The notes beneath the pieces are model-generated. The model ran no database searches. It saw only the letters and a program-made list of their open reading frames with translations, and was not told where the DNA came from. The position numbers and the translations under genes are program-made. A DNA stretch of 64,000 nucleotides from a virus. The stretch lies in IMG/VR virus record IMGVR_UViG_3300042876_000344. The stretch is one strand, 5' to 3'. Shown piece by piece: positions 2,055 to 26,033 of this stretch; position 1 is the first letter of the stretch, and every line of letters begins with the position of its first letter.

Positions 2055-2797
2055 GCCCCCGCCAACGTGCCGAGGCCATCATGGCCATCTCGCCCCGGCC
2101 CGCCTGCTTCAATGAGGCGTGGTGGGTGGAGCAGATCACCAGCGCCATCCAGGCGGCCATCAAGGATCTACTCGCCTCCGTAGTCGTGGGGGCCACCATG
2201 GACGGCAATGTGCGCGTGCGGGTGGGCGACTATGAGCAGGTAGTTGAGATCCGAACTGCGCAGCAACAGGCCCTCGCCGCCGCGCTGGAAGACCTCGCCG
2301 CCGTGACTGCCGAGCGGGACGGGTTAGCCGACGAACTACGCAAGACGCACAAACTCCTGGGCGAGACGCAGGAGCGGTACGAAGCCGCGCTGGAGGAGAA
2401 GCGGGCGGAACTGGCGAAGGTAACCAAAGAGCGCGACGAACTGCGCGCGGAACTCGACACTTGCCCCGACTGCGAGGGCGAGGGGTACATCGAGAGCATC
2501 GGGTCCGACAATTACCCGGAGTCGGTTAGATGCGAGCATAAGGGGCTCAAGGCGGCGGAACTGGCGGCGGTCGCGCGGGAGCGGGACGGGCTTGCGGCGG
2601 CGCTGGCAACAGCTCTCCATCGCATGTCGTGTACCGTAAATCACTGCAAAGAGTGCTATGCCTACAGATTGTACAGCAGGCCGTCTGATGTCCTCGCCGC
2701 CCACGACCGCGCAGTCGCGGCGCGGGTGCTGCGGAGAGAAGCCGAGGGGCATTTTAAGGATGAGGGCTATTCGGATCTGAGTGTAGGTGTTCGCTAG
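2051..2797 (+). CDS. coiled-coil protein with CPDCEG / CKEC Cys pairs
   Basis: ATG 2051 overlaps upstream stop (ATGA). Long heptad-like ELRKTHKLLGETQERYEAALEEKRAELAKVTKERDELRAEL. Confidence 0.6.
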   Translation: MSPRQRAEAIMAISPRPACFNEAWWVEQITSAIQAAIKDLLASVVVGATMDGNVRVRVGDYEQVVEIRTAQQQALAAALEDLAAVTAERDGLADELRKTHKLLGETQERYEAALEEKRAELAKVTKERDELRAELDTCPDCEGEGYIESIGSDNYPESVRCEHKGLKAAELAAVARERDGLAAALATALHRMSCTVNHCKECYAYRLYSRPSDVLAAHDRAVAARVLRREAEGHFKDEGYSDLSVGVR

Positions 2798-2841
2798 GTG
2801 TTCGCTAATGATGCAACAGCGTCAAACTTCGGATTTGAGTG

Positions 2842-2870
2842 TTGACAACCACACTGGAATCCGATATTGT
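2842..2870 (+). promoter_or_regulatory. sigma70-like promoter, leaderless geometry
   Basis: TTGACA (2842-2847), 17 nt spacer, TATTGT (2865-2870), then 6 nt to ATG 2877. No SD in between. Confidence 0.55.
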
Positions 2871-2876
2871 AAAAGC

Positions 2877-3155
2877 ATGACAAGTACAAGGATCGACGCC
2901 AAAACGATGAAAGGTGAGATCCGAGTTCGCCGTGGCTACGACATTCGGGTTGACTCGAAGACTGGACAGAAGACGGAGGTTTCCCCCGTCGTTTGTATGT
3001 GCTGCCAGAAGGACATCTTTCACGTCTCTGAACTTATCAATGGCGACATCGTTGGACCGGGATGCGACGGACTCATTGCCTGTCCGGTGTATCGGATTGG
3101 CCGCACGCTCAACAGGAAGCAAGCCGCATACGCTTCATCAAGGGGGTTGCTATGA
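2877..3155 (+). CDS. hypothetical protein
   Basis: ATG 2877 directly after the promoter, inside track ORF 2787..3155. First gene of a visibly more A/T-rich module. Confidence 0.55.
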   Translation: MTSTRIDAKTMKGEIRVRRGYDIRVDSKTGQKTEVSPVVCMCCQKDIFHVSELINGDIVGPGCDGLIACPVYRIGRTLNRKQAAYASSRGLL

Positions 3156-3319
3156 CCGAGCAGGAAGTCGAGCTGATTATAGACAAATTGCGGGAAGCCG
3201 AGAGCATGGTGATCTCGGCCCTCTTGGACGACAGGAAGCGGGATAGCTGGGGGGCGTTGGACGAGTGTAAAGTTCTGATTTGGAAGGCAATGGACCAAGC
3301 GGGAGACGCAGCACGATGA
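3152..3319 (+). CDS. hypothetical small protein
   Basis: ATG 3152 overlaps upstream stop (ATGA). MTEQEVELIIDKLREAES... Confidence 0.55.
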   Translation: MTEQEVELIIDKLREAESMVISALLDDRKRDSWGALDECKVLIWKAMDQAGDAAR

Positions 3320-3495
3320 GTTGGGAAGCGTGGGGCAGCGGCCCGGAACCATTCGACGTTGACAAACTGTATCGGGAAGGGTGGGATTGCGATGAGAGTT
3401 GTGTGGTGTGGTTCAAGGAGGAGGAGCCGGAGAAAGTCTACACACTGGATGAGGCAATCCAAATCTATGAGGATTGGCTATCAAATGAGGAGTAA
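3316..3495 (+). CDS. hypothetical small acidic protein
   Basis: ATG 3316 overlaps upstream stop (ATGA). MSWEAWGSGPEPFDVDKLYREGW... Confidence 0.55.
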   Translation: MSWEAWGSGPEPFDVDKLYREGWDCDESCVVWFKEEEPEKVYTLDEAIQIYEDWLSNEE

Positions 3496-3499
3496 CTCT

Positions 3500-3838
3500 A
3501 TGACGAGAGTCGTCGAGGTAAAGCCGGGTATTGAGATGCGGATTCGTGGCCTCCGATGGGATGACGGCTGGAGGTACGGCTCCCCGGTGGCACTCATAGA
3601 CCCCGTTCTGAAAGTGTACGAGGACGGACGGAGCCTAGAAAGGGCAATCGAAGACCTGTGTATTGATGCGTGTGTTTGCGGCGTACTGAAAGATGAGGAA
3701 GCATGGCGATGGGAAGCGGCTCCGGGTGGGTCCTTGGCCTACCTCAGACGCAAGTTTTACCGCACGCATGTCCAGCGAGTTGATTGTAAGGTGCGGTTCA
3801 TTGTTGACGACGACGGAGAGTTGTGGTGGGAGGCGTAA
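3500..3838 (+). CDS. hypothetical protein
   Basis: ATG 3500 with GAGGAG 7 nt upstream, inside track ORF 3359..3838. Confidence 0.6.
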   Translation: MTRVVEVKPGIEMRIRGLRWDDGWRYGSPVALIDPVLKVYEDGRSLERAIEDLCIDACVCGVLKDEEAWRWEAAPGGSLAYLRRKFYRTHVQRVDCKVRFIVDDDGELWWEA

Positions 3839-4242
3839 TGGGTATGTTTGCGCCGGGTAGAAGCGAGACGGTGAACTACCACTATTGGCCGATCCGATTC
3901 GGCTGGTCTAGTGGGCCATACCAGCAAACACTTTGGCGGTGGGTTAGAAGGGCTATCGACAGCAGGCGGTGGACCCTCGATTACCCACACCGATACACTT
4001 GCCTGTCGTCGCTGGAAATTCACAGGGCTGCTGCCCGTCGAATGTGGCACGGTTGGCCCATCGGGGGCAGTTCAAGGGAGTATGGCTGGACGCTTCACCT
4101 TGGACGGTTTAAGGTGTACTTCGGAGATCCGGACACCACACGGCAATCCGAAATCAGTACTAATGGTCCATCCACACCGCAATCCGAAGTTGGTAAACTG
4201 GCTTCATGCCAAACAGACTCGGACTCAAGGACTGGAAAGTGA
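3838..4242 (+). CDS. hypothetical Trp-rich protein, 3' end probably altered by the IS insertion
   Basis: ATG 3838 overlaps upstream TAA (TAATG). The frame runs into the ISL3 left end and 36 nt into the transposase gene. An alternative overlapping frame (track ORF 3911..4471) cannot be excluded. Confidence 0.45.
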   Translation: MGMFAPGRSETVNYHYWPIRFGWSSGPYQQTLWRWVRRAIDSRRWTLDYPHRYTCLSSLEIHRAAARRMWHGWPIGGSSREYGWTLHLGRFKVYFGDPDTTRQSEISTNGPSTPQSEVGKLASCQTDSDSRTGK

Positions 4243-5549
4243 CGAACGTCGAAGAAAGCACAACAGACATGAGGGTGACGGCAGAGTACACGCCGCCACC
4301 CACGGCCTGCCCTCGCTGTGGGTTGGCCGACCAGCCGCTCTACAAGCACGATGTCCGCACTCAGGAGTTCATGGATACCCCGCTCCACGGAAAGCGGGTC
4401 CATTTGATCGTGAGACGCCAGCGGTACGTCTGCCAAGGGTGCGAGAAAACCTTCCAGCAGATCCTTCCTGATATGGAGGAAGACCGCACGATGACGAAGC
4501 GACTGGTGTCGTACATCAAGCGTCTATCGCTGGAAAAGAAGTTCACTGAGATTGCTGATGAGGTTGGAGTCAACGAGAAGACCGTCCGCAACCTATTCAA
4601 AGAGCACGTCGAAAGGCTCGATTCCGAGCGGGTCATCACGGCCCCGGAGTGGCTTGGCGTGGATGAGCTTCACATATTGGGTGACTTTCGGGCGATGCTC
4701 ACAGCCCCCGGCGAGAAGAAGATTCTTGACCTTCTGGAGAAACGAGACAAGGCTACCGTTCTCAAGTGGATGCTGGCCCTGCCCAACCGGAAGAACGTCA
4801 AGGTGGTGACGATGGACATGCACCGCCCGTACCGGGAAGCTGCGTTGGCAGCGTTTCCGAATGCCGCCTGTGTGGTGGATGTATTCCACGTCGTCAGGAT
4901 GGCAAACAAAGCGGCGGATTCGCTCCGCATCGCACTCAAGGATGAACTGGACCCGAAGGTACGCCGGAAGATCAAGCGTGATCGGTGGATCATTCAGGCA
5001 CGTCGCAGGAACCTGAAGGCTGGCGACGTAATCATGCTGCATTCGTGGGATCGGGTAGTTCCGATGCTCTCGGCAGCATACCGGGCAAAGGAAGACTTCT
5101 ACGACATCTACGAAAAGGCCAAGGACCGGGCGGAAGCTCTTGAACTGTGGGACTTGTGGCTGGAGATGTTGGAGCCGGAACTGAAGAAGCCCTTCAGTGA
5201 ACTGATCCGGGCTGTGACGAACTGGAAGCCCGAAATCTTCAACTTCTTCGACTACCGGGGCAAGACCAACGCCTACACGGAAGCGATCAATAGCGTCATT
5301 CGAGCCATCAACCGTGCTGGTCGTGGCTATAGCCTCGACGCCATCAGAGCCAAGGTGTTGTACGGCGGCAAGAAGCGGCAGACGGACACCGAGTACCAGA
5401 AGGTCGCCTTGTCGATGAAGATCAAGCGGCCCAAGGTGGACACAACTTATCGGGTGGACCCGGAGACAGTGCTCCATGTGGACAAACCACCCAAACCAAA
5501 GAAGAAGACAAGAAAGTATGAGAAATGAATGTCAACACTACAATCCGAA
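4144..5549 (+). mobile_element. ISL3-family insertion sequence (boundaries approximate)
   Basis: Intact ISL3 transposase ORF. The 9-nt CAATCCGAA occurs at 4144-4152, 4180-4188 and 5541-5549 and is a candidate target-site duplication. Clean terminal inverted repeats could not be found by eye. Confidence 0.6.
4206..5528 (+). CDS. ISL3-family DDE transposase
   Basis: N-terminal zf-ISL3 pattern CPRCG..(n)..RRQRYVCQGCEKTF. LGVDELHILG, VTMDMHRPY...VVDVFHVV and KTNAYTEAINSVIRAINRAGRGY match the ISL3 DDE core. 440 aa with no frameshift. Confidence 0.93.
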   Translation: MPNRLGLKDWKVTNVEESTTDMRVTAEYTPPPTACPRCGLADQPLYKHDVRTQEFMDTPLHGKRVHLIVRRQRYVCQGCEKTFQQILPDMEEDRTMTKRLVSYIKRLSLEKKFTEIADEVGVNEKTVRNLFKEHVERLDSERVITAPEWLGVDELHILGDFRAMLTAPGEKKILDLLEKRDKATVLKWMLALPNRKNVKVVTMDMHRPYREAALAAFPNAACVVDVFHVVRMANKAADSLRIALKDELDPKVRRKIKRDRWIIQARRRNLKAGDVIMLHSWDRVVPMLSAAYRAKEDFYDIYEKAKDRAEALELWDLWLEMLEPELKKPFSELIRAVTNWKPEIFNFFDYRGKTNAYTEAINSVIRAINRAGRGYSLDAIRAKVLYGGKKRQTDTEYQKVALSMKIKRPKVDTTYRVDPETVLHVDKPPKPKKKTRKYEK

Positions 5550-5634
5550 TACCCAGGATGAGGTCTTTGGCTGGCATATCTCATCCGCCACAGTTGGAAA
5601 AGAGTTGAGACGTCTTGCCGCCCAGTACGAGGCC

Positions 5635-5662
5635 GGCGAGCGGGAGGTGCCGGGTGAGTAGT
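5635..5662. repeat. 28-nt gene-junction repeat, copy 1
   Basis: GGCGAGCGGGAGGTGCCGGGTGAGTAGT encodes ...GEREVPGE* of the upstream ORF and supplies GGGAGG + GTG for the next gene. Confidence 0.9.
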
Positions 5663-5875
5663 CCGAATTTCAGGCGGCTACTGGCCGCACAAATCGAGCC
5701 ACATCTGATCAGAATCCACGGTTTGCTGGGGAGTGACTACAAGCTGACGCTCATCGCCAGGAACGCAACGATGGAGACCGCCGACGTGATTCTGACGGCT
5801 GACAACCTCGACCTCGCGATTGCGGCGGCGAAGAGGACACGCCAGAACGGCGAGCGGGAGGTACCGGGTGAGTAG
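5654..5875 (+). CDS. hypothetical small protein
   Basis: GTG 5654 lies 5 nt after GGGAGG, in frame with track ORF 5615..5875. Begins MSSPNFRRLLAAQ and ends GEREVPGE*. Confidence 0.6.
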   Translation: MSSPNFRRLLAAQIEPHLIRIHGLLGSDYKLTLIARNATMETADVILTADNLDLAIAAAKRTRQNGEREVPGE

Positions 5876-5876
5876 T
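5849..5876. repeat. 28-nt gene-junction repeat, copy 2
   Basis: GGCGAGCGGGAGGTACCGGGTGAGTAGT, one mismatch to copy 1, 214 nt downstream. Confidence 0.9.
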
Positions 5877-6638
5877 TTCGAGTCCGAGTTTTATAGACTA
5901 CGCGCTACCCTTGTCGACGTGCGGAATGCGGCGATGAGTCAGATTTCGCCGCCAGCGCCGCAGGAGATGGACCGAGAGGCCCTCGTCAATATCGCGGAGA
6001 CGGCCGAGGCAGGCCTCGCTGTGGACGTCCAGGCGCTGCATAAGCATACCGCGATGAGCAAGGCGGCGCAGGAAGATCGACCCTTGGTGCCAAGCCGAGT
6101 GCGCATCTACAGTTATCAGCACGAAGCGTACTGGCGCCCGAATGCGGGTGGCTACACGAGAGAGAAAGAAGAGGCGTGGGTCCTATCGCGAGCTGAAGCC
6201 GAGCGCATAACCAAGCACTGTGGTCCGGAAAAGAGGATCGAGTTAGAACTCGTGCCGAGCAGGTGGAAATCGCGAGCAGAGTTGGAAACTGAGAATGAGC
6301 GGCGCGCGAATGAGGCCCGCAACTGGCAGAGCACCGCAGAGCAGCATTGTCGCAATGAGCAGTATTACCGAGGGATGCTGGCCCAAATTGGAGAGACCCT
6401 CGGGCAGGCGGTCAAAACCTGTGACGACGGAACCACCGTGCCAGATGTTTTGGTGGCCAAGGTGGTGGAGGTCACACTGGCGCGCATCTCGGGGCTGGAG
6501 GCGGAGAACGCCCGGCTGCGGGCGGCGATCTTGGCGGCCCCACACGGGATGCTTTGCCAAGAGTATGCGCACTGGGAGAACGAAAAGTGTGACTGCTGGA
6601 AGCAGGCCGCGCTGGCCGGGGAGGATTCCAATGGCTGA
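5868..6638 (+). CDS. coiled-coil hypothetical protein
   Basis: GTG 5868 after GGGAGG, in frame with track ORF 5820..6638. Begins MSSFESEFYRLRATL. Confidence 0.65.
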   Translation: MSSFESEFYRLRATLVDVRNAAMSQISPPAPQEMDREALVNIAETAEAGLAVDVQALHKHTAMSKAAQEDRPLVPSRVRIYSYQHEAYWRPNAGGYTREKEEAWVLSRAEAERITKHCGPEKRIELELVPSRWKSRAELETENERRANEARNWQSTAEQHCRNEQYYRGMLAQIGETLGQAVKTCDDGTTVPDVLVAKVVEVTLARISGLEAENARLRAAILAAPHGMLCQEYAHWENEKCDCWKQAALAGEDSNG

Positions 6639-6975
6639 ATTCTTTACCTCGACCACGGCACTCAAACTCTACGAGGAGCAGATCGCTGTCCGCGACCGCC
6701 ACATTGCGGAGTTGGAGGTGGCACTTCTGGGCTTCTACGCCGGCCACCAGGGCGGCAGTGACCCGAAACAGGATGACTGCCAATGCCTGAATTGCCGCTC
6801 ATACCGCGCGTACCGGGCGGGGAATACAATCTTGCTCAACGACATGCTCGCCGGGGCGAAACGGATGGCGCTAGAGGAGGCGGCAAGGCACTTCGGCGTT
6901 GAGCCAACAGCCTCCTATCAGGGATCGACTGTCGAGGGGTTTCTGCTGAGCAAGGCGCGGGAGCCCCGTCCATGA
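6631..6975 (+). CDS. hypothetical protein
   Basis: ATG 6631 overlaps the upstream stop (ATGGCTGA). It is the tail of track ORF 6295..6975, whose N-part is shadow sequence. Confidence 0.6.
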   Translation: MAEFFTSTTALKLYEEQIAVRDRHIAELEVALLGFYAGHQGGSDPKQDDCQCLNCRSYRAYRAGNTILLNDMLAGAKRMALEEAARHFGVEPTASYQGSTVEGFLLSKAREPRP

Positions 6976-7340
6976 GCATCCGAGTCGCCTGCCGCCGCGA
7001 CCTCCACTACGACTACACCTATCAATGGCGGCCTGGCCTCCACGTGACCGACAGCGGCCCCGCCACCTGCGCCTGGTGCGGCGGCCAGTGGGCATCCACT
7101 CACCGCCTCCAGTACTCGCCCTGCTGCGGCTCTTCGCGCGTGCAGCCGGGCGCCGTGAGCCTGATGCGCCTCTCGCGGCATCCGAAGCTGCGGCCGATCT
7201 TCGGGGATGTCTTCCGGTGGCGGGGGCTGCGCTGTTGTGCGGCCATCGAGGGCGACAGCGTCCTGGTGGACGGCTTCTGGCGCGTTCCGGTGAAGCTGTG
7301 GCTGCGTGAGGCGCGGATAGCACGGAGGGGCGACGTATGA
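6972..7340 (+). CDS. hypothetical Cys/Trp-rich protein
   Basis: ATGA overlap at 6972. Track ORF. Confidence 0.55.
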   Translation: MSIRVACRRDLHYDYTYQWRPGLHVTDSGPATCAWCGGQWASTHRLQYSPCCGSSRVQPGAVSLMRLSRHPKLRPIFGDVFRWRGLRCCAAIEGDSVLVDGFWRVPVKLWLREARIARRGDV

Positions 7341-7507
7341 TTGCCATCCGCGCGTTCATGTTGATCGCCGACGATGAGCCGAGCCTGCAGGATATTCGGT
7401 TCACGCGGGAGGAGATCGAGAACCTCGCTGATGTCGATTGGTGGCTGGCGCACGGTGGCCGGATCGTTGAAGTAGAGATTCGGGAGGTCCGCGATGGAAC
7501 CACCTAA
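7337..7507 (+). CDS. hypothetical 56-aa protein (below track cutoff)
   Basis: ATG 7337 overlaps upstream TGA (ATGA). MIAIRAFMLIADDEPSLQDIRFTREEIENLADVDWWLAHGGRIVEVEIREVRDGTT*. Confidence 0.5.
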   Translation: MIAIRAFMLIADDEPSLQDIRFTREEIENLADVDWWLAHGGRIVEVEIREVRDGTT

Positions 7508-7763
7508 AGCCGGCGACCAAGTGAGGGTTCGCCGGCGCGTGTTCACTGTCATCTGGGCCGCGGCGAATCACGTGATTTATGTTGTCGACGGCGGCTACAT
7601 GGGGCACGTGGTCAGCATGTCAGACTGGCGGAGACTCACTGCTTCGCCCGCATCGGCACCCGGCGACCGTCAGAAAACACCATCCAGTCCCGGGTCCAAA
7701 TCCGGCCGTCGTGGTAGACGCCCCGCTCCACCTCAATCCACCAGTCCTGATCGTCCAGCCTAA
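7494..7763 (+). CDS. hypothetical protein; C-terminal ~42 codons overlap a convergent gene
   Basis: ATG 7494 with GGGAGG 6 nt upstream. The N-part (MEPPKAGDQVRVRRRVFTVIW...) looks protein-like. The tail is P/S/R-rich and antisense to 7636..7803. Confidence 0.55.
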   Translation: MEPPKAGDQVRVRRRVFTVIWAAANHVIYVVDGGYMGHVVSMSDWRRLTASPASAPGDRQKTPSSPGSKSGRRGRRPAPPQSTSPDRPA

Positions 7764-8447: not shown

Positions 8448-11400
8448 CTAGTTCACCGTCGCTGTCCCGGACACGCGTGCCGTGCCACACGTGACTCGGT
8501 AGTACACAGTGCCGGCGCTGAGGCCGCTGGCTGAGTAGCTGTGTGCTCGCCCCGCGGCCGAGGAGTTGGGATCCGAAGCATCGTCAGAGGATGCCGGCGC
8601 GCCGCTGCCAACCAGGACTTTGCAGGCCGCCGGGCTCGGCCCGATCCAACTCAACACTAGAGTTCCCGTTCCAGGGATAGCTCGGAGGTCGGTGATGCGA
8701 TCCCGCGGCACGAGGGCATACTCAGGCGCCGTCATGCGCAGATTCAGCCCGCTCAAACTGCCCATTACTCGCTCCCAGGCCCTGCGCCCTGTCCCGGTAC
8801 TGGTCGAGTATTCCTCCGCCAGCGCGACCGATGACGCGTAGAGATTCGGGTACGAGTGGCCGTAGCCGACGCCGTTCCACTGGACCCGATCCCACGTCCA
8901 TGTTGCGCCCGCCGAATGGCTCGCCGCGGTTGTCCCGTACATTCCGCGCCCGCCAGTGCAGACCGTGAGCGTGGACTGCCCGGCGATGGGTGAGTCAACG
9001 GCGGATGAGCAGATATTGATCCACTCGCTTTCTATCCGCACAATGGTCGGCTCAAACCAGTCAATGCCGATATTGGCGTTGGAGGTACGCTTGTCAATCA
9101 CGATGGACGTGGCGCTGTTCGTGATGGTATTCACCAGCGCCGCCGTCCGCGGGAACGTAGAGGCCTGCTCTGCCCACGTCTGCGGAATGACATTGGTTGC
9201 CCCAACAACAAACGGAGCGACGTACCAGTCATAGAAATGTGCGTTTGAGTCGGGGTGAATCGCGGAATTGATGAGGTATTTCGAGTATTCCTCGTGCGTG
9301 TAGCGGAACAACGGTTGCCCAGTGGTGGCGTGCAGCCATGCACCGGTCTGCGCCGCCCATCCGATTATGTGGGCGATGTAGTTCAGCATGAAACTCTGTG
9401 TGTAGTTGCCCTCGCTCCAGACCGGCAAGCGCAATGGATTGGACATTCCCTTCATTTGCAGGTGCCTTCCGGAGCACCAGGGCGATACGACGGACGTGTA
9501 GTGGTAGGAGATGACTACCGTGCTGCCGGCGCCCACTGCCGCCGCTCCGTCGTCCTGGAATACGGTGAATCCACCAGGGTAGTAATACCAGTCCCTGCCG
9601 GTATCCACGCCGCGCACGCCAATCGTCTTTGCCGCTCCGTCAACCGTGATGCCCGTCACCGAATAAAGCGGATGGGCGACACCCAGCACTTTGGTCGTGC
9701 CATTCAGTTTGTAGACAGACCAGCCATTCCAATCATTGGTGCTGCTGGAGGTGTGCGTGACACTATTGCTTCCAAGATCACTCCCACGGCAGAAATTGGT
9801 GGCGGTGGTCACCCCGGCATTCCCGCCGCTGATGCCATACGCGCCCTCCCACATTTCATCGTTTTTCTCTAAAATCCGCCTGAAGTACTCGCGTTCCGGC
9901 CACGCGGAAGGAGCGAGCAGCGCACCGTAGGCGATCTCCCGTAGACTCCATGCCGAACTGCGCCAGTTCCCCCAATCCTGCTTCAATCCCCAGTCGCCGC
10001 ATCGCGTGTGGTAGTAGTAGCAGGCGTAATTTGTGCCGCTGGCCATCCACCCAGACAGTGCCATCTGCCCTCGCAAATAGGCGTAGCGCCCGGTCAGGAT
10101 GTACGGCATCGCGAATGCGGCGGGCATGTGACTGGTATCGAACACCCAGCCCTTCGTGTAGGCAGCGTCAGCGCCTCTGGCCCCGTCACAAGGGGTAGCC
10201 GTGCAGACCGGGACGACGGCGTCTGCTCCGTCGCTACCCTCGCCGCTCTGCGCCGCCTTCCAGTCAGGCCGCGCCGAAATACTGGCGATGCGCCCGAATG
10301 CGGGCGTCGTCTGCGCGGTGTCGAAGTAATACTTCTGGCCGTCAGCGGGAGAATCGCGCACCGTCGAATTGTCGCTCTCCCATTCCCAGACGGGCAGCGT
10401 CATCGCGGCGTCTGCGTTGCCCACTAGGAGCTTATCGAAGATCTCTTTTCGCTGCGCGACGGTGAATTGCGAAGTGTCGCCCATGGCAAAAATCTGTGTC
10501 ACATACCAGCGTGGGTGAACACCGATGTCCCCCCTTCCGCCCGTGCCGGGAATGTACTGCTGCCAATTCCCGCAGCGCCCCGCGCCTGGATCGCAATCCT
10601 GGATGTCGGCCGCCCCTTTGTTTGCGTCGAATTGCGCAACGTCTGTAGCGCCACTCCACTGCTGTGAGTAGCTATAGGGCGGCAGAATGCGAGAATGCAC
10701 CATGTAGCGGAGGTTCCAGTCCGTCTGGATTGCAGCGGGCGCGCTGCCATCCCAGAAGTAGCGCGAGAAAGCAGACCGCGCAGGCAGGTCAAACGCGGTC
10801 TTGCTGTACACAGATGCCCCGCTGGTTTTCGTCACCGACAAATCGAACACCTGCCGCTGAAGCCGCGTCGTGGCGCCGTTGATGGCAAGGACCTCCACCT
10901 CCACGCCAGCCCAGCCCGCGTAGAACGAGGCAACGAAAACAGGATGGACGCTCTTGTAGGTGTCGCTCGACGGCGCCTGCCAACTCCCGCCGCTGTACTG
11001 CCAACCGAAATCATAGAGCGGGTTCGGGCGGGTAACGTCCTCGAACACCGCCTGCGTCACGAAAGGCCCGCGCAGCCTATACGTCCACGCACCCGCCGCC
11101 AGCATTGTGCGCGCATTTGCAGAATAGGTTATGAAATCAGCCGTGCCCGATAGCACCGCGCCCCAGGCCGCTCCGTTAAAATTGAGCATCTGCTGCTGAG
11201 TCAGTGCGGCGGCCGCGCATGTCGCCAGATTCCCAAGATGACAGGGGTTGCTATCGGGAACGAAATCCACCACTGCTGAACCGTTGGCCGTGATCGACAC
11301 GGGGAGGCTGACGAACGCAGCCATCACCGACAGGTCTGGCCAAACGCTCTCAACGTCCACCTGCCAATTGGCGGGGACGCTACCACCCACGCGCGGCTTG

Positions 11401-19739: not shown

Positions 19740-20073
19740 CGTGCGAGATGAGTTGGATGAACCGGCCGGCGGCGAAATCGCCTCCAACCAGCGTCATGAA
19801 GCTGCTCGCCGGGCCGGCAGTGTACTCGACAGGAGCCCCGCCGACATCGTAGACGGGCGCCCATCCAGCGTCGTTGTAGGCTGGCACGTCGTTGGGATAG
19901 GCGAGCCCGCGGCCGTGGTGGACGTTGAGCCTGATCTTGGTCGCTCCCGCATCCCAGGCGGCGGGCATGAAGATGCCGACCAGCGCCTGCCCGTGGAGGG
20001 GGATCGGCTGGCTCACAGACCGGCCAGAAACGAAGCTGGCCGGAATCTCCTGCTGTTGGTAAAACTCGCTCAT
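19669..20073 (-). CDS. hypothetical virion-module protein
   Basis: AAGGAGA SD 8 nt before ATG 20073. Track ORF. Confidence 0.6.
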   Translation of the reverse strand: MSEFYQQQEIPASFVSGRSVSQPIPLHGQALVGIFMPAAWDAGATKIRLNVHHGRGLAYPNDVPAYNDAGWAPVYDVGGAPVEYTAGPASSFMTLVGGDFAAGRFIQLISHDGTSPVVQTADRSFFVVSRPYLG

Positions 20074-23000
20074 TCAGGTAGTCTCCTTAGGAATTCTTTC
20101 ATGATTTCGACCTTGCGTTCTGGGGTAGCCGTGCGGATTGACTTTCCGCCCTCAGCCTTGATGACAGATTGGCGTGCCTGGTTTGCCGCGGAGTTGATGG
20201 CCCTCTTCTTCTGCTGCTCATCGAACGCATCAAATGCCGGGTTCGCCCTGATTCGCTTGATAGCCGCCCGCGCTGCCTTTTCCTGCGCCTCGCGCCGGAG
20301 GGTGTAGTAGGAATTCTCCTGCGCACCGCCGGCGGCAGACGTGAATCTCTTCAGCACCGCGGTGGGCAGCGTCTCTCCGCCGATCTCTTCGGGCTTGATC
20401 GCGCCCGCCGCTGCCGCTGCTGTGTCGGCGAGGTTCAGCAGTTGCGGCGTCCAGCCCCCGAGCGTGGATTTCACGAACTGCTCCACCTTGATGGGAGGAG
20501 CGTTCAGTGCGCCGGCCAGCTTCTTCATCGTCCCGCTGGTATTCGGCGCCACCTGCTCCTCCACCGGCAGGTCCTGCAGCCGCTGGTTCACGATGGGCTT
20601 CTGGCGGAAGGTGTCGAAGTTCGTTGCGTACTCTGTCGACGGCTTCGCGGCCTGCGGCAGGAGCCCCGCCCACATCCCGCGCGGGCTTGGATCGAACGGC
20701 AACACGGACCCGGCAATCGGCCGTGCCACGTCCTGCAGCGGGTTCACCTTCTCCCCGCCCATCTGCGCTTCAATGGCGCGCCGAACAGGAGTGGCGATGG
20801 CGCCGATATCCGGAGCCATTTTCATTTTGAACACGCCATCGTACCGGCCGGTCTTTTCGTTCTTCACCGCGCCCGGCGCGATGTAGATCATGTACCCCTC
20901 TTTTTCGTATTCGGGGATATCCCTGTAGATGGCCCTGCGCTTTTCGTCGTACATATTGGCGACGGTGAGCATCGCCATGGGAGCATACACCCCCACCATG
21001 ATCTTCGTTGCGGTCTGGACGGGCCGATCCTGGAATGCTGACACGAACGACCTGGCGCCCTGGACGCGGGCGTTCAGGTAGAGGATGGCACCGCCTAGGC
21101 CGTTGGTGACATCGCCATGCCGCCGATAGTTTGGGAGCTCATTATTGGCCGCATGGACGCCGGCGGCCTCAGCTTCAGCCGGAGTTGCCCCCCGCCGGAG
21201 ATTCGCCCGCTCTGTCCCGAGGAACAGACGCGCCCGGCCAAACTGCTCGCCCCGGTTGTTGAAGTCCTCAATCGCGCGGATCAGACCGGCGGCGCGCTTT
21301 ACGGGGATGCCGACAGCCCACTTGACCTTGTTGCCCTTGAACCCTTCGGCGTCGACCAAGTGCTTGGCGTAGTCCTTGGCACTGCGAAACTTCCGCATGC
21401 CGCCGACAGTCTGCGGCATCGTCTCACGGAACAGGTCCAGCGAAGTGAACCCGGCCCCGGTTTTCTCGATTCGGCTCCAGGTCTGGTTATGGAAGTAGGC
21501 CGCGGCGAACGCCTGCCCAAACACCTTCGGGTTTAGGGACGTGTCCCGGTATTCCTTCGAATTCACCAGGGTGGTGAACCAGTCTCCCACCGGGTTAGCA
21601 AAACCGAATGCGATGTTCGCCCCCGTCGTGCCCATCCGCGCCAAGCGCGCCGGCCCGTTCATGATGAGAGCCAGGGTCTTGTTCATCTGCTGGGCGTTGA
21701 GACATTTCGCCGCCGCCGCGATCTCCGGCGTGGTCTGGATGACGACCTTCTTGCCGTCGCGCAGATAGGTGAACGACGTTTTCGAGTCTGCCTCGCTGAC
21801 CTCCTGCAGGAGCCCCTGCATTCCCGGCTTGTTGGCGTAGCTGGCCAGGAGCGCCGCCGCCTTGTTTTTCTCGCCCTGCTCGAATGCCTTCCGGGTCCTA
21901 TCAAGCATCGTCTCAAGCGGGTTTTCGATGGCGCGCTCACTGCCGACACGCTTCTGGTAGACGCTCTGGGCGGAGAGGGATGCCGTCGCCTTCGTGCCAG
22001 ACATGTTGGCGGATGCGTCTTCAATGGCGCCCATAATGCGGCTGAGAGGAACATGCTCTGTGCCGTATTGCTGCCGCCAGACGCCGGCGATCTGCTGGCT
22101 CACCAGCCCTGACTTGACGCTATAATCCAGGAGCCTGTCACCAGCCAGCCCCACCTCTTTGGCGAGTTGCCCGTAGGTGATGCCGGATTCATTGGCCGGC
22201 ATGTTCACATACTTGTTGTAAATTGCCTTCGCTCCGGCCAGGTCAACGCCGGTAGCCCGGTCTTTGCCCTGCGACTCGCGGATGGCTTCCTTGGCCACAA
22301 GGAAATCGTTGAGGGCCTGGTAGTCGTCCGCGGCCTGAATCGCGCGCATGAGCCCGCCGTCGCGGATCTCGCGCTCTGCAAGCTCACGGCTGCCGAGCGA
22401 TCGGTCGGCAGCGTTGCTGAAGTCCCGGCGCGATGAATCGTTGTTCTTCGCGAGCACGTCGAGGATCGGGGAGAGGTTGTCGACGAACTCCGCCTTCCGC
22501 TTGGTGAGTTTCTCTAGGAGCGAGTACTCCTTGCCCTTGCGCGCCGCTTCCCGCTTGGCCGCGAGGGTTGCCCGCGCCTGCTCTGCCGCGTCCATCGGCG
22601 GTGCCGGCTGCTTGCCTGGGATCGTGAGGAAGCCGCCCTGGTCGGCTAGGCGGCGGGGGGAGACTCCAGAGGGGGCGTCGAAGAGTCCGGGACCTTCTGA
22701 CGGACCACTGGCCACTCCTCCGCCAGGCTCCGCAGGAACGCCGCCTTCTCCTCCGCGGACAGCCTTGGATACCTCGGCTCTGACGATTCCGTAGAGTTGA
22801 TCTGCGACCTGTTTGCGGGGCTTTCCATCGGCAACCTCTCGGGCTGCCTGGGCGATGGCGTCGGCGATTGGACCGGATTTATCCTGGAGGGCATCGAATA
22901 CTCCCAGCGCCTCGCCAGCTTCTCCAGCGATCTGCGCGTTTCGTTCCGCCTCTATTTTATTCCCAGCGCCGGCCAAACGCGAGGCCGCGTTTTCGTTGCC

Positions 23001-26000
23001 GACGACGGAGAACAACCGCTTCTCTTGACCGAGCCGCGCCTTGATGTCGGCGACAAGGTGCGCTTCTTCGTTGAAGAGGCTCTCCTCGTAGGCATTCGTC
23101 CCGAACAGGGATTCCTGCTCAACCTGCTTGGATCCAGCCTTGCCTGCCCGGCGAACGACCTCTTCCAGCGCACCCTCTCGCATATTGGGATGGCCAGCCA
23201 TGAACTTCGCGACAGCGATCTGCGCCGCCTCGCTGAGGTTGCCCTTGCCGATGATGGCGCCCTGTCGGTGGGTGAGCCCGCCTCGCACAACGTCGTCGAA
23301 CAGCACGCCGGTCAACTTCGAGAGAGCGAGGCCGTCTTCGGCCACCTTCCCCTTCATCGAAATTCCGTTCGCGGCGAGTTCTTCCGGGGTGAGTCCACTG
23401 TCCCTGAATACCTTGGCTGCGTCAACAGCCGTGCCCTTGCCATCACCGATGTTGATGAGCGCGCCCTTCAGCCGGGCCTGTGCTGCGTTGGGGGCATCGA
23501 CATACCGGACAGACATACTGTCCTCGCCGAGGCGTGCGGCCATCTCGTAGCGGTGGTGACCGTTGACAACGTAGGTCTTGCCGTCGGCAGGGTCGCGCCA
23601 GACCGCGATGGTTCCGGCCTTGTCCCTGTCGAACTTCGTGACGCCTTTGTACTCGTCGGTCACACCACCTTTGAGGTAGGCGTCCATCTTGTACTGGAAC
23701 CGCTGCGGGTCGACGTGGAGATCCTCGATCGGAACGCGTATCTCCTTCGGATCGGCAACGACGCGCTGCTGCGCAGGGGCGGCCTGCGCTCCGCCGAGAG
23801 GGATATCCACTTGGCTACCATCTCGCTTGCTAAACGAAATGTGATCCAGTGTAATCTCCTGCCCATCCAGCGCCTTGTTGCCAGCGAACTTCGTGCCCTC
23901 GCCGGGCTTCACGTAGGCCAGCGTTACATGCGGCCGGTATGTCGGATGAGTATCGGTGTGTGGCAGGGCATCCGCGATAGCCTTGTTGATCCGATGAAGA
24001 TCAGGTGATTCAACGTCGACCTTCACGACGTCAGATCCGCTGGCGTTCTTGGCGGGGAAGATACTAGTTTCCCCGAGGCGAGCACGAACCGGATGCTCCC
24101 GCGACAACACTTCGCGTATTTTTTCAATTGCTGCCGGAGAGTCATCATGCAGCCCGTACTTCACGGTGACATGCGGCTGGCTCTCCCTGCCATCTTCCGC
24201 CAGCACGAAATCTGGGATTCTCAGGGATTCCTGCTTTACCTTGTCTGCGACTGGACCAGATAGGTTGGCCTGCGTAGATGCAAATTCGTGCGCAGGGGCG
24301 GCCTGCTCCGCCCCTGCTGGTGCTGCCTTCGGTTGGATCACCTCCTCTCTCGGGGGTTCCGACTTGAGTGCAGGCATGAGATCGTCGACGTGAATTTGAG
24401 CGCTGCCCGGGACGCCTACTGGTTGTAGTCCCTCGCGTCCGGAGGGGGGAATTTCTTGCCGGGATGGTCCTTCTGGAACTGCTCCTTGTTTTTGAAAAAC
24501 TGGACCTGCTTCTCCCGGTGCTGCGCTTGGCTCTGCGACTGGTACGTTCCCAGGTTCTTGCCCTTGCCTGATACCAGCCGGAACTTGTTGCCCACTTTCT
24601 CGATCATTGGGGACCTCCAGGTCGTCGACAGTGAATACTTTCGCGGACTTCAGCGGGGTAGCCGGCTCGAATAGTGGCTTCGCTGGGGCAGGGGGTGCAG
24701 GGGCCTCAACAGCAGGCGGCTGTCGGGTTTCGTTATCTATGAACGTCTGGGCCGCATCCTGCGCTGACCGGGGTGCTTCGAACACGGCAGCGGATTCTGC
24801 GGCCGACTTGAACGGTGTGGCCGGCAGCGCTGTGTCTGGCCGCGCCTGCCAGGAATATTCCCATGGCAGCCTGGTGGAATCTTCGGGGTGAACGTCGGCA
24901 TAGCCCTGCTGATACGCGGCATCTTGGGCGGCCTTGGTGCGGTCGCCGTACCGTTCGAGCAACTGCTCTTTCCTGGATTTAGTAGGCTGGGCTACGGGCT
25001 GTTCTGTTTTCGGAACAGACGGCGGCATAATCTCCACCGGCTGCTCATTCGGTGCCGTCTCGCGTGTTCCGAAGTAATCGCCAGGGCGTTTCGCCTGCGC
25101 CGCGTGCTCCCGCCGCAACTGCTCCAGTTCGATGTTCGCGCGCTGCTCGCCGAGCCGGGCACCCTTGAAGGACGTCCCATTCGCACCGGGTGCAGCCAGC
25201 CCAGCGCCTGTCAGGAAAGCGGCTGCGGTGTCTGTGGGAGATCCGCCACCGATGGCGGTCTCCGCGCCCATCGCTGTGCCCATGCCAGCCATCCTGGTGG
25301 CGGTGCGCGCCGGAGCCATGACGTGCCCTAGGGAGCCGAGCGCGGCACCCTTCGCTCCAGCCAGAGCAGCATGCCCGAATCCCTTGTCGGCTTCAGATGC
25401 GGCGTCGACGGCCGCCATGCCGAGAGGACCACCCAGCACCGCCGTAGCCACGCCATACTTCGCCAGATCGACAGGAGCCTGTCCGATGGCCTCATACAGG
25501 GGCTTCGCCAGCCCCGTGGCCCCCTGCCCTTCGAGTTTGTTCGCCTCTCCCTGGTAGAACTCCTCCACTGGAGTATACGGGTTTGCGTTCTCCGTGCCGG
25601 CTACGTGGTAGGTAGTCGCCCCGCGAAGCCCAAGATTCGCCGCCCGTGATGCGTCGGCGGCGATCTCATCGCGCCACCCCTTGCCAGGCGAGGCAGGAAC
25701 AGAGGAGGGGACAGGCAGATCTGGCGCGACGGCGGGCTTCGACATATAGGGGTTGCCCGCCATGTCGGCGCCCATCTGCGCCAAGTTCCCGCCGAGTTTT
25801 GCCGTCTTCGCGACAGCGCGATTGTAGCCCTGCTGAATCGACCGCGCCGGCCGGATGATGCTCTCGCTGATGAGGTTCATCCCGGTTGCGCCGGGCGTCT
25901 CCTCCATCTTCACCTTCGGAGCGGCGATGCCCTTGAGAGGGATACCGGCCGCTTGCGATGCCTGCTCGTTGAGATCTGGAGGGACCAGATCGTCGACCGA

Positions 26001-26033
26001 AACCACGAGATCATCTACAGAGTATTTGGGCAT
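20070..26033 (-). CDS. giant polyvalent internal-virion/ejection-type protein (2H phosphoesterase + ParB-like nuclease domains)
   Basis: 1987-aa ORF in the gp16-like position after smaller internal proteins. HVTVKYG and HVTLAYV form the two HxT motifs of a 2H/LigT-like domain (about 23799-24281). IRVPIEDLHVDPQRFQYK...YVVNGHHRYEMA is a ParB/Srx-like domain (about 23454-23750). Gly/Ala-rich hydrophobic N-region. Confidence 0.8.
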   Translation of the reverse strand: MPKYSVDDLVVSVDDLVPPDLNEQASQAAGIPLKGIAAPKVKMEETPGATGMNLISESIIRPARSIQQGYNRAVAKTAKLGGNLAQMGADMAGNPYMSKPAVAPDLPVPSSVPASPGKGWRDEIAADASRAANLGLRGATTYHVAGTENANPYTPVEEFYQGEANKLEGQGATGLAKPLYEAIGQAPVDLAKYGVATAVLGGPLGMAAVDAASEADKGFGHAALAGAKGAALGSLGHVMAPARTATRMAGMGTAMGAETAIGGGSPTDTAAAFLTGAGLAAPGANGTSFKGARLGEQRANIELEQLRREHAAQAKRPGDYFGTRETAPNEQPVEIMPPSVPKTEQPVAQPTKSRKEQLLERYGDRTKAAQDAAYQQGYADVHPEDSTRLPWEYSWQARPDTALPATPFKSAAESAAVFEAPRSAQDAAQTFIDNETRQPPAVEAPAPPAPAKPLFEPATPLKSAKVFTVDDLEVPNDRESGQQVPAGIRQGQEPGNVPVAEPSAAPGEAGPVFQKQGAVPEGPSRQEIPPSGREGLQPVGVPGSAQIHVDDLMPALKSEPPREEVIQPKAAPAGAEQAAPAHEFASTQANLSGPVADKVKQESLRIPDFVLAEDGRESQPHVTVKYGLHDDSPAAIEKIREVLSREHPVRARLGETSIFPAKNASGSDVVKVDVESPDLHRINKAIADALPHTDTHPTYRPHVTLAYVKPGEGTKFAGNKALDGQEITLDHISFSKRDGSQVDIPLGGAQAAPAQQRVVADPKEIRVPIEDLHVDPQRFQYKMDAYLKGGVTDEYKGVTKFDRDKAGTIAVWRDPADGKTYVVNGHHRYEMAARLGEDSMSVRYVDAPNAAQARLKGALINIGDGKGTAVDAAKVFRDSGLTPEELAANGISMKGKVAEDGLALSKLTGVLFDDVVRGGLTHRQGAIIGKGNLSEAAQIAVAKFMAGHPNMREGALEEVVRRAGKAGSKQVEQESLFGTNAYEESLFNEEAHLVADIKARLGQEKRLFSVVGNENAASRLAGAGNKIEAERNAQIAGEAGEALGVFDALQDKSGPIADAIAQAAREVADGKPRKQVADQLYGIVRAEVSKAVRGGEGGVPAEPGGGVASGPSEGPGLFDAPSGVSPRRLADQGGFLTIPGKQPAPPMDAAEQARATLAAKREAARKGKEYSLLEKLTKRKAEFVDNLSPILDVLAKNNDSSRRDFSNAADRSLGSRELAEREIRDGGLMRAIQAADDYQALNDFLVAKEAIRESQGKDRATGVDLAGAKAIYNKYVNMPANESGITYGQLAKEVGLAGDRLLDYSVKSGLVSQQIAGVWRQQYGTEHVPLSRIMGAIEDASANMSGTKATASLSAQSVYQKRVGSERAIENPLETMLDRTRKAFEQGEKNKAAALLASYANKPGMQGLLQEVSEADSKTSFTYLRDGKKVVIQTTPEIAAAAKCLNAQQMNKTLALIMNGPARLARMGTTGANIAFGFANPVGDWFTTLVNSKEYRDTSLNPKVFGQAFAAAYFHNQTWSRIEKTGAGFTSLDLFRETMPQTVGGMRKFRSAKDYAKHLVDAEGFKGNKVKWAVGIPVKRAAGLIRAIEDFNNRGEQFGRARLFLGTERANLRRGATPAEAEAAGVHAANNELPNYRRHGDVTNGLGGAILYLNARVQGARSFVSAFQDRPVQTATKIMVGVYAPMAMLTVANMYDEKRRAIYRDIPEYEKEGYMIYIAPGAVKNEKTGRYDGVFKMKMAPDIGAIATPVRRAIEAQMGGEKVNPLQDVARPIAGSVLPFDPSPRGMWAGLLPQAAKPSTEYATNFDTFRQKPIVNQRLQDLPVEEQVAPNTSGTMKKLAGALNAPPIKVEQFVKSTLGGWTPQLLNLADTAAAAAGAIKPEEIGGETLPTAVLKRFTSAAGGAQENSYYTLRREAQEKAARAAIKRIRANPAFDAFDEQQKKRAINSAANQARQSVIKAEGGKSIRTATPERKVEIMKEFLRRLPE
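24378..24404. repeat. imperfect direct repeat flanking the nested-ORF cassette (downstream copy)
   Basis: Minus-strand AGCGCTCAAATTCACGTCGACGATCTC encodes SAQIHVDDL in the giant frame. Confidence 0.75.
24416..24607 (-). CDS. nested 63-aa ORF in the +1 frame of the giant gene
   Basis: GGAGG lies 6 nt before ATG 24607. MIEKVGNKFRLVSGKGKNLGTYQSQSQAQHREKQVQFFKNKEQFQKDHPGKKFPPPDARDYNQ*. 53 of 63 codons end in G/C (hand count), against about 18 of 63 for the giant frame over the same nucleotides. Confidence 0.55.
   Translation of the reverse strand: MIEKVGNKFRLVSGKGKNLGTYQSQSQAQHREKQVQFFKNKEQFQKDHPGKKFPPPDARDYNQ
24618..24647. repeat. imperfect direct repeat flanking the nested-ORF cassette (upstream copy)
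   Basis: Minus-strand TCCGCGAAAGTATTCACTGTCGACGACCTG encodes SAKVFTVDDL. The GTCGAC cores of the two copies are exactly 240 nt apart. Confidence 0.75.

Follow-up and report, generated by a model that had tools for sequence, protein, structure and literature searches.

Overprinted genes are known from viruses with small genomes, such as phiX174, in which gene E lies in D and gene B lies in A, and morons (Hendrix and colleagues) are small genes, independent of their neighbors, that have been inserted between the genes of a phage. Phage λ Rz1 lies inside Rz, the pair being an example of two-component spanin genes of which one is embedded in the +1 frame of the other (PMC6139136, PMC5295617), while the polyvalent proteins of phages have been described as single-polypeptide fusions (Iyer, Burroughs, Anand, de Souza and Aravind 2017; PMC5512222). 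We analyzed a 64,000 nucleotide (nt) stretch of virus DNA, IMG/VR record IMGVR_UViG_3300042876_000344 (below, "the window" is the whole of this stretch), in which a complete 63-codon open reading frame (ORF) lies on the same strand as, and inside, a much larger ORF of 1987 amino acids (aa). Sequence comparisons suggest that this small ORF is probably a nested gene with independent initiation, while the same bases, in the host frame, would encode disordered linker. The arrangement is made up of the following features:

Positions 24416 to 24607, minus strand: the nested gene, ATG to TAG, 63 codons (from the ORF list and its translation).
Positions 24614 to 24618, minus strand: a Shine-Dalgarno (SD) sequence, GGAGG, followed by a 6-nt spacer and then the nested ATG.
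Positions 20070 to 26033, minus strand: the host gene, encoding a 1987-aa phage-type polyvalent protein (from Pfam and PHROGs).

The locus is like Rz1/Rz in that a larger phage gene wholly contains a small one that is complete, has its own start and is in the +1 frame, both frames being open. It differs from that pair in that the outer gene encodes a polyvalent protein rather than a lysis protein, in that some close relatives have the embedded gene and others lack it, and in that the embedded gene is the older, widespread sequence and the outer frame the newer reading. An embedded o-spanin of the Rz1 type was considered and rejected, as the 63-aa protein has no signal peptide, lipobox or cysteine. 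With the overprinted genes the locus shares dual coding, in which one frame is constrained and the other specifies a compositionally biased, disorder-prone peptide, but here the constrained frame belongs to a horizontally widespread family and is not a de novo gene, and the disorder-prone "new" frame belongs to a large host protein. As with morons, this is a small accessory gene that some relatives have and others do not; unlike the case of morons, the host frame reads through the inserted gene. Classification as a moron was rejected on its location inside a coding sequence, the lack of a promoter-like site in the region, and terminator-like sites that occur only on the opposite strand and no more often than by chance. 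Finally, the locus agrees with the polyvalent proteins in the domain set of its host protein and in that the mini-domain encoded by the small gene is found in frame in polyvalent-type proteins elsewhere, and it departs from them in that one module is out of frame inside the gene, as a separate cistron.

The small ORF is in the +1 frame relative to the 1987-aa ORF, whose own frame we call frame A. Its product is MIEKVGNKFRLVSGKGKNLGTYQSQSQAQHREKQVQFFKNKEQFQKDHPGKKFPPPDARDYNQ, a protein with an isoelectric point (pI) of 10.0, in which residues 1–43 make up the core of a basic mini-domain, widespread and of strand-strand-strand-helix form, and residues 44–63 a lineage-specific tail. The GGAGG-N6-ATG arrangement is kept in all seven of the related contigs discussed below (L001 through L006, from six samples, which encode an 83% identical protein, and L069, which encodes a 97% identical one) despite differing neighbor bases (GGAGGTCCCCAATG versus GGAGGTGTTCAATG). 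The nearest in-frame stop 5' of the nested ATG is a TGA at codon -15 (position 24652), and the +1 frame is open before the ATG for 14 codons in the window and 32 in L001. G or C ends 53 of the 63 codons in the small frame, while only 18 of the 63 frame A third positions over the same bases are G or C. Across the giant gene the number of G/C third positions (GC3) in frame A averages 46.1 ± 7.0 per 63 codons; its minimum (18) is at gene nt 1425, the small ORF begins at nt 1426, and the maximum of +1-frame GC3 (54) is at gene nt 1438. Frame A has no stop codon through the whole segment, which is also true of about 10% of the synonymous versions of this ORF that were generated with the codon usage of the genome. 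The original prediction, which called attention to this ORF, held up in its coordinates, frame, peptide and SD spacing and in the open state of frame A, and its two third-position counts were exact on recount; the upstream TGA that it put at about codon -17 does exist and does close the frame, but at codon -15.

A complete same-strand ORF in a second frame is thus present in the window and in seven related contigs, its initiation signals are present at the sequence level in two lineages that have different spacer bases, and the embedded frame has both homologues and signs of purifying selection (below). Several other kinds of element were sought in the region. Folding around the SD is no stronger than that of shuffled sequences (z score +0.68), so it shows no ribosome-binding-site hairpin; no Rfam match was found in the region, and an RNA element or intron was rejected on this basis; no σ70-like promoter was detectable in the region above chance; terminator-like stem-loops in the region occur only at chance level and on the opposite strand; and no terminal inverted repeats were found around the segment. 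An autonomous mobile element was also rejected, its only ORF being that of the 63-aa protein and there being no inverted repeats and no Rfam, Pfam endonuclease or intein match.

The open +1 frame upstream of the ATG also bears on a quite different explanation, a programmed +1 frameshift just before position 24607 that would end at the TAG at 24416 and so yield, beside the full-length protein, a product of about 540 aa consisting of the N-terminal region and a C-terminal copy of the mini-domain. Such a protein would have parallels, since many members of the mini-domain family bear it at the C-terminus of 330–710 aa proteins, and 2 nt separate the GGAGG from a following CCC codon (GGAGG TC CCC AAT G), a spacing that recalls prfB, in which a +1 shift is stimulated by an SD sequence. 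However, the slip codon varies (CCC AAT in the window and L069, TTC AAT in L001 through L006), and the features that are conserved, namely the SD, the 6-nt spacer and the ATG, are the geometry of an initiation site; the A site holds neither the stop nor the rare codon of a prfB-type site. In addition, the N-terminal 470 aa are not like any protein with a C-terminal mini-domain (BLASTP, none at 1e-3), and, beyond the nested lineage, the nearest relatives are genes that stand alone and start at the equivalent M-[T]-I-x-K. We consider a frameshift at this point to be quite unlikely.

Both frames are open across the segment in all seven related contigs, which come from seven samples. When the giant gene is compared with them by BLASTN, gene nt 1416–1619 (window positions 24415–24618) stands out as a discrete block that runs from the SD through the stop codon with 87–88% identity, versus 72–81% in the flanks, which are arranged differently. 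In L001 through L006 there are no VDDL repeats of the kind that flank the window's cassette (below); the small ORF directly follows ...SAKESAEVF, and its stop codon is directly followed by GGAAGGAGGTGATCCAG, the 3' spacer being gone. The SD of the L001 type, GCGGAGGTGTTC, matches host codons that read GCGAAGGTGTTT at the corresponding empty site of a further relative, L070 (GAAGGTG to GGAGGTG). Because the flanks in L001 through L006 differ right up to the SD and the stop, the remodeling of the flanks in this lineage, as judged from these alignments, is one that stopped at the boundaries of the functional cistron. The mini-domain is in frame and internal in many other large phage proteins, so one could imagine that two compensating sequencing indels have merely put an in-frame domain out of frame here, a danger raised with the original prediction. 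This is contradicted by the presence of the same two open frames in seven independent assemblies (seven samples and assemblers), by the ATG, SD and TAG that the +1 ORF has of its own, by the closure of the +1 frame 15 codons upstream and by borders that have no homopolymer tracts; since seven contigs from seven samples share both open frames and the SD-N6-ATG, an assembly artefact is for all practical purposes excluded.

The differences among these sequences are unevenly distributed between the two frames. The window and L069 have 7 differences, which give a ratio of non-synonymous to synonymous change (pN/pS) of 0.13 in the small frame and 0.9 in frame A; the window and L001 have 24 (24/192, or 12.5%), with pN/pS of 0.38 and 1.06, respectively; and the three differences between L001 and L004 are all synonymous in the small frame (pN/pS of 0) and all non-synonymous in frame A. 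On these counts the small frame looks to be under purifying selection (0–0.4) and frame A looks neutral-like (about 1), and the pN/pS values, the frame A GC3 pattern and the deep homology of the small frame agree with one another. Synonymous variation that conserves frame A, which the original prediction had named as the observation that would speak against a nested gene, is not seen. The lineage-specific 20-aa tail (residues 44–63) that is shared by the window and L001 argues for a single origin of the nested copy.

The segment's borders can be compared with L070 (IMGVR_UViG_3300033066_000373), an IMG/VR contig with a relative of the giant gene that is 72–82% identical to the window by BLASTN (87% in the best-conserved N-terminal segment). 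Its giant ORF is uninterrupted over at least 1606 aa and shows nothing of the mini-domain. The features of the window that are compared with it are as follows:

Positions 24378 to 24617, minus strand: the 240-nt (80-codon) segment that is absent from L070 (from the comparison with L070).
Positions 24619 to 24647, minus strand: the upstream repeat copy, encoding SAKVFTVDDL in frame A, DNA core ATTCACTGTCGACGACCT.
Positions 24379 to 24405, minus strand: the downstream repeat copy, encoding SAQIHVDDL in frame A, DNA core ATTCACGTCGACGATCT.
Positions 25986 to 26018, minus strand: two N-terminal VDDL motifs (YSVDDLVVSVDDLVPP; from a motif search).

At the corresponding place L070 has one site, ...SAKVFTVEDLVPAPRPSS... 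(KVFTVEDLVP), whose context reads ...PLKSAAESAKVFTVEDLVPAPRPSSPELPRKEVIQSAPVAG..., while the window reads ...PLKSAKVFTVDDL(E)VP-NDRE..., then the cassette, then ...GSAQIHVDDLMP-ALKSEPPREEVIQPKAAPAG..., that is, KVFTVDDL(E)VP, cassette, SAQIHVDDLMP. The upstream copy in the window matches the left half of the single L070 site, SAKVFTVEDL, and the sequence after the downstream copy (ATGCCTGCAC...) continues like the L070 sequence GTACCTGCAC after its single site. The site is thus single in L070 and duplicated around the 240-nt segment in the window and in L069, and the presence or absence of the segment exactly at the VDDL repeats, for which the original prediction had proposed that homologues be searched, is what L070 displays. 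With its flanks the repeat is ATTCAC(T)GTCGACGA(C/T)CT, its copies being 18 and 17 nt long with one indel and one mismatch; the imperfect direct repeats first described as about 27 nt long are therefore real, but reach 27 nt only at the peptide level. The sequence GTCGACGAYCT occurs at 24619–24629 and 24379–24389, exactly 240 nt apart, and a third time at 25987–25997; three occurrences in 64 kb compare with 0.11 expected (none of 100 shuffles reached three), and all are inside the giant gene, where every copy encodes VDDL. That motif is found at residues 6, 13, 469 and 549 of the giant protein, and the second of the N-terminal pair uses GTCGACGATCT and is followed by VP, as are the cassette-flanking copies; the earlier description of GTCGAC cores 240 nt apart, with VDDL in both repeats and twice more at the extreme N-terminus, was correct. 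A broader form of the motif, [ST]V[DE]DL.(V/M)P, is present four times in the giant protein of the window, once in that of L070 (about 9298–9320) and not at all in that of L001; it could be a docking motif, a cleavage motif or only a recombination scar.

The window and L069, when set against L070, have the pattern of a target-site duplication, although the repeats are imperfect and are absent around the cassette of L001 through L006, which have the ORF without the repeats. The boundaries that the original prediction gave the cassette are therefore right for the window and L069 but are not a conserved property of it. The same pattern would result whether the segment was inserted and the site duplicated in the process or the two repeats recombined and so deleted it, and because the three lineages are about equally distant from one another and mosaic, it does not choose between these histories. 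Of the earlier suggestion that a small gene was inserted at a VDDL boundary in a manner that keeps the host ORF open, the nested gene and the empty site stand, and the direction of the change stays two-way. Scans of IMG/VR with the N-terminal and ParB regions for more empty sites returned only L070, a scan of JGI metagenomes for further site states gave none, and a protein search with the L070 junction found free-standing 2H phosphoesterases only and no further site states.

That L070 lives without the segment might be taken to mean that the small gene is a silent passenger, that is, a recent insertion which is not expressed, is kept only because the giant ORF happens to be unbroken, and will decay. 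Chance alone would leave frame A open in the fraction of codings given above, and the gene is known from a narrow lineage only, as no carriers beyond it were found in IMG/VR, JGI metagenomes or GTDB genomes, and an exact 28-mer of the cassette is absent from all three. On the other hand, the 12.5% divergence between the cassettes of the window and L001 has left the ORF, the stop and the SD intact in both, and the changes are skewed toward synonymous ones in the small frame. The remodeling of the L001 flanks, in which the VDDL copies and the 3' spacer were lost, halted exactly at the SD and the stop, and the L001 SD was recreated out of host codons. In view of these facts a passenger seems unlikely.

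L070 bears as well on whether the giant ORF is really two genes, of about 470 and 1440 aa, with the small gene between them and the frame A link not usefully translated. On the short related contigs, the automatic gene callers predicted the 63-aa ORF and placed the start of another gene 9–50 nt after it, and a strong SD-like sequence, AAGGAGGTGATCC, follows the stop of the small ORF in L001 and is 66 nt after it in the window. However, those gene calls come from truncated contigs; frame A is free of stops in all eight sequences, so ribosomes arriving from the N-terminal part must continue; L070 joins the two parts directly in one ORF without the cassette; and GGAGGTGATCC is also present inside that continuous ORF of L070, and no properly spaced frame A start follows this sequence. 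Two separate genes are thus very unlikely. Automatic annotation misses the 63-aa gene or breaks the giant gene there, as in the related contigs, and such nested cistrons in large phage genes are probably under-counted. We note separately that all three lineages, the one with the empty site among them, keep a near-perfect complement of the anti-SD sequence, (A)AGGAGGTGATCC, within the giant ORF a short way downstream of where the cassette sits or would sit (window 24345, GGAGGTGATCC; L001 3755–3766; L070 about 9350–9362). It encodes (K/E)EVIQ, and no start codon in frame A is at a proper spacing after it; it might make ribosomes pause, or might reflect nothing more than conservation of the codons.

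The explanation that we favor for the locus is the internally initiated nested gene. Internal initiation at the GGAGG-N6-ATG (24607) would yield the 63-aa protein as a product of its own, while ribosomes translating the giant gene would read the same nucleotides in frame A as an 80-residue disordered spacer. In that frame the segment is residues 473–552 of the giant protein, EVPNDRESGQQ...GSAQIHVDDL, which are rich in P, G, Q and E, have a hydrophobic fraction of 0.19 and a disorder-promoting fraction of 0.74, and resemble the surrounding linker (aa 280–600); such a spacer would presumably be tolerated because it falls within the long flexible linker that joins folded modules here. The segment may have been gained or lost through recombination at the short repeated linker motif (...FTV[DE]DL.VP), and the survivors would be those versions with a length that is a multiple of three and a stop-free frame A (about 10% of codings being open). 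The states of this site bear on how disordered protein segments can originate by the reading of an existing gene in another frame.

A number of points weigh against this explanation, and we collect them here. Internal initiation at 24607 is deduced from nucleotide sequence alone, and an open frame A is unremarkable in itself, given that about one coding in ten would have it. The signal of selection rests on 3–25 substitutions among four distinct sequences, and the higher identity of the block could come partly from recent lateral spread rather than constraint. There are only three lineage states, and these are mosaic, so that neither polarity nor a single event is provable. Moreover, searches for a function of the protein gave no informative match: Pfam has no model for the 63-aa protein or for canonical members of its family and gives only chance-level matches, PHROGs gives only phrog_3684 ("unknown function", E values 0.002–0.012), a profile search of PDB sequences found no relative, and Foldseek found no significant fold match in PDB.

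The 63-aa protein is nevertheless, by its profile matches, a genuine member of a very large unannotated family with a basic core of about 43 aa. A first search with it found five relatives, two of 63 aa (97% and 83% identical) and three of 45–49 aa (55–66% identical); the latter are free-standing phage genes in L007, L008 and L009, and the L007 copy lies after RusA and upstream of a head-tail connector gene. A family profile built from these six sequences (the query and its five relatives) matched 59 loci in IMG/VR and, among 1.84 billion proteins, 2943 representative clusters (50% identity, E ≤ 1e-3); against 90% clusters it matched 927 proteins at E ≤ 0.001, many of them 43–50 aa long and all of them labeled "hypothetical". 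In a six-frame translation of the window the hidden Markov model (HMM) of the family has a single match, in the nested frame (73.9 bits, E 7e-24), and thus no second copy of the mini-domain is present in the 64 kb. The family motif is I.K..[FY]RLVSK.GKNLGT...A..REKQV.[FY]FK, and I2, L11, S13, G16, L19, G20, A28, E32, F38 and K39 are invariant in 74 sequences that include the nested copy; the family consensus is MTIRKVK.GYRLVSKKGKNLGTY.T.AGAEKREKQVQYFKH (loci L010–L068, proteins P0006–P0261). Free-standing members usually have a Lys/Arg-rich C-terminal tail, while the nested copy has a different one, of 20 aa. No paper was found in the searchable literature with the family motifs, and the 63-aa query has no match below E 0.9 among cultured phages.

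In the loci that we retrieved the mini-domain is either free-standing (45–62 aa) or in frame at the N-terminus, at the C-terminus or internally, in ORFs of up to 1551 aa, and its partner domains include ParB_N, Amidoligase_2, Zeta_toxin, DUF5824, GH19, cytidylyltransferase and HAD. Foldseek comparison with BFVD found the same mini-domain inside XkdF, ART-PolyVal and LPD-containing proteins of uncultured phages, as well as in 52–59 aa proteins of Vibrio phage phi-pp2 and Yersinia phage TG1. AlphaFold2, given the alignment of 74 sequences, predicts strands at residues 2–5, 8–12 and 18–22 and a helix at 25–47, with a mean confidence score (pLDDT) of 84. The best fold matches in PDB are UPF0339/YegP (DUF1508) proteins (3bid, 6q2z and 2k7i; E 0.6–3.4, template modeling (TM) scores of about 0.35–0.38). 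These are also about 45–60 aa long with strands and a helix, and we take them to have a loosely similar [FY]R[FL]...G...A motif, but we regard them as a lead and not as relatives, given a Foldseek E of 0.63 at best, a TM score of 0.38 and no Pfam match at E ≤ 10. One 416-aa family member, P0022, has the mini-domain at residues 213–256, and immediately after it comes a match to ribosome modulation factor that falls below threshold (PF04957, 23.4 bits with a cutoff of 27.9; the two together span residues 213–304), which is a weak hint of a link to ribosomes or RNA. The small protein is strongly basic, and the modules joined to its relatives include ParB, amidoligase, Zeta-toxin, ART-PolyVal, XkdF and LPD; from this we guess, in the weakest step of our reading, that it may serve as a nucleic acid-binding or virion-binding accessory alongside an injected polyvalent protein. 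The antiparasitic or structural role mentioned in the original prediction is likewise a guess. An abundant basic mini-domain that has no Pfam model or PHROGs function and that travels with phage anti-defense and effector modules is a reasonable target for functional work.

The host protein consists, from its N-terminus, of an N-terminal region, a disordered linker, a 2H phosphoesterase (PF13563, aa 617–740, 7e-15), a ParB-like domain at about aa 760–890 (PHROGs matches at 1.6e-6) and LPD38 (PF18857, aa 1703–1877, 5.5e-17). The 2H, DdrB-like ParB and LPD38 domains are markers that are restricted to phage-type polyvalent proteins (PMC5512222), and here they occur together as several unrelated effector-type domains in one polypeptide, so by its domain content the product is a phage-type polyvalent protein. 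Nearby genes include those for an amidase endolysin and a collagen-like tail fiber, and there is a match to the C-terminal part of a PHROG family labeled "portal protein"; from this late/structural gene context we predict that the polyvalent protein is packaged in the virion. Residues from about 280 to 600 include few hydrophobic ones and are rich in P, G, Q, E, S and A, which suggests a long flexible linker. No cultured-phage DNA relative of the locus was found, and matches to cultured-phage proteins are distant only (<40% identity) and are to parts of the giant protein.

The 2H module that adjoins the linker is itself bounded by a repeat:

Positions 23770 to 23787 and 24289 to 24306: an exact 18-nt direct repeat, TGCGCAGGGGCGGCCTGC, that flanks the 2H module, its copies 519 nt (173 codons) apart.

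Both copies encode QAAPA, and the module between them extends from about 23788 to 24288 (about aa 584–748). L001 through L006 precisely lack the module and have a single copy of the repeat left, and L070 has the module but not the second copy, the same pattern as at the cassette between VDDL repeats, at a distance of 100 nt. In database searches the nearest matches of the 2H domain are free-standing phage proteins of 172–240 aa that are labeled "2'-5' RNA ligase" and are 50–56% identical to it, many of which also match the Acb1 (anti-CBASS) Pfam family; this suggests that the domain was either taken up from a stand-alone gene or set free as one. We tentatively raise the possibility, which we hold to be somewhat doubtful, that the locus is a caught-in-the-act intermediate of module gain and loss in polyvalent proteins by way of short linker repeats. 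Free-standing small genes would recombine into polyvalent linkers at short repeated motifs, would persist at first as out-of-frame nested cistrons while the host frame reads some extra linker, and would later be fused in frame or excised. In favor of this, the mini-domain, nested here, elsewhere stands alone or forms an in-frame part of polyvalent proteins, and the adjoining 2H module is bounded by repeats, is precisely absent from the L001 lineage and has free-standing relatives. The empty site, the repeat-flanked filled site and the trimmed filled site, together with the repeat-bounded neighboring module, amount to a natural experiment on the assembly of polyvalent proteins.

Two further observations concern the giant gene in the related contigs. 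In L001 (2224–7569) it is in three ORFs (2224–4902, 4376–6556 and 6541–7569) with runs of N, and the gene caller made spurious calls on the opposite strand within this interval; these breaks probably come from gaps in the scaffold or frameshifts in the assembly and have no biological meaning. Both L001 (about 2950–3560) and L070 (about 8700–9290) have a duplication of about 150 aa in the linker, whose unit, YQQGY.DVHPED..RLPWE.SWQARPDTA.PA.P.KSA.ESA.VF, is present twice in each of these and once in the window, and the peptide SA.ESA.VF recurs several times.

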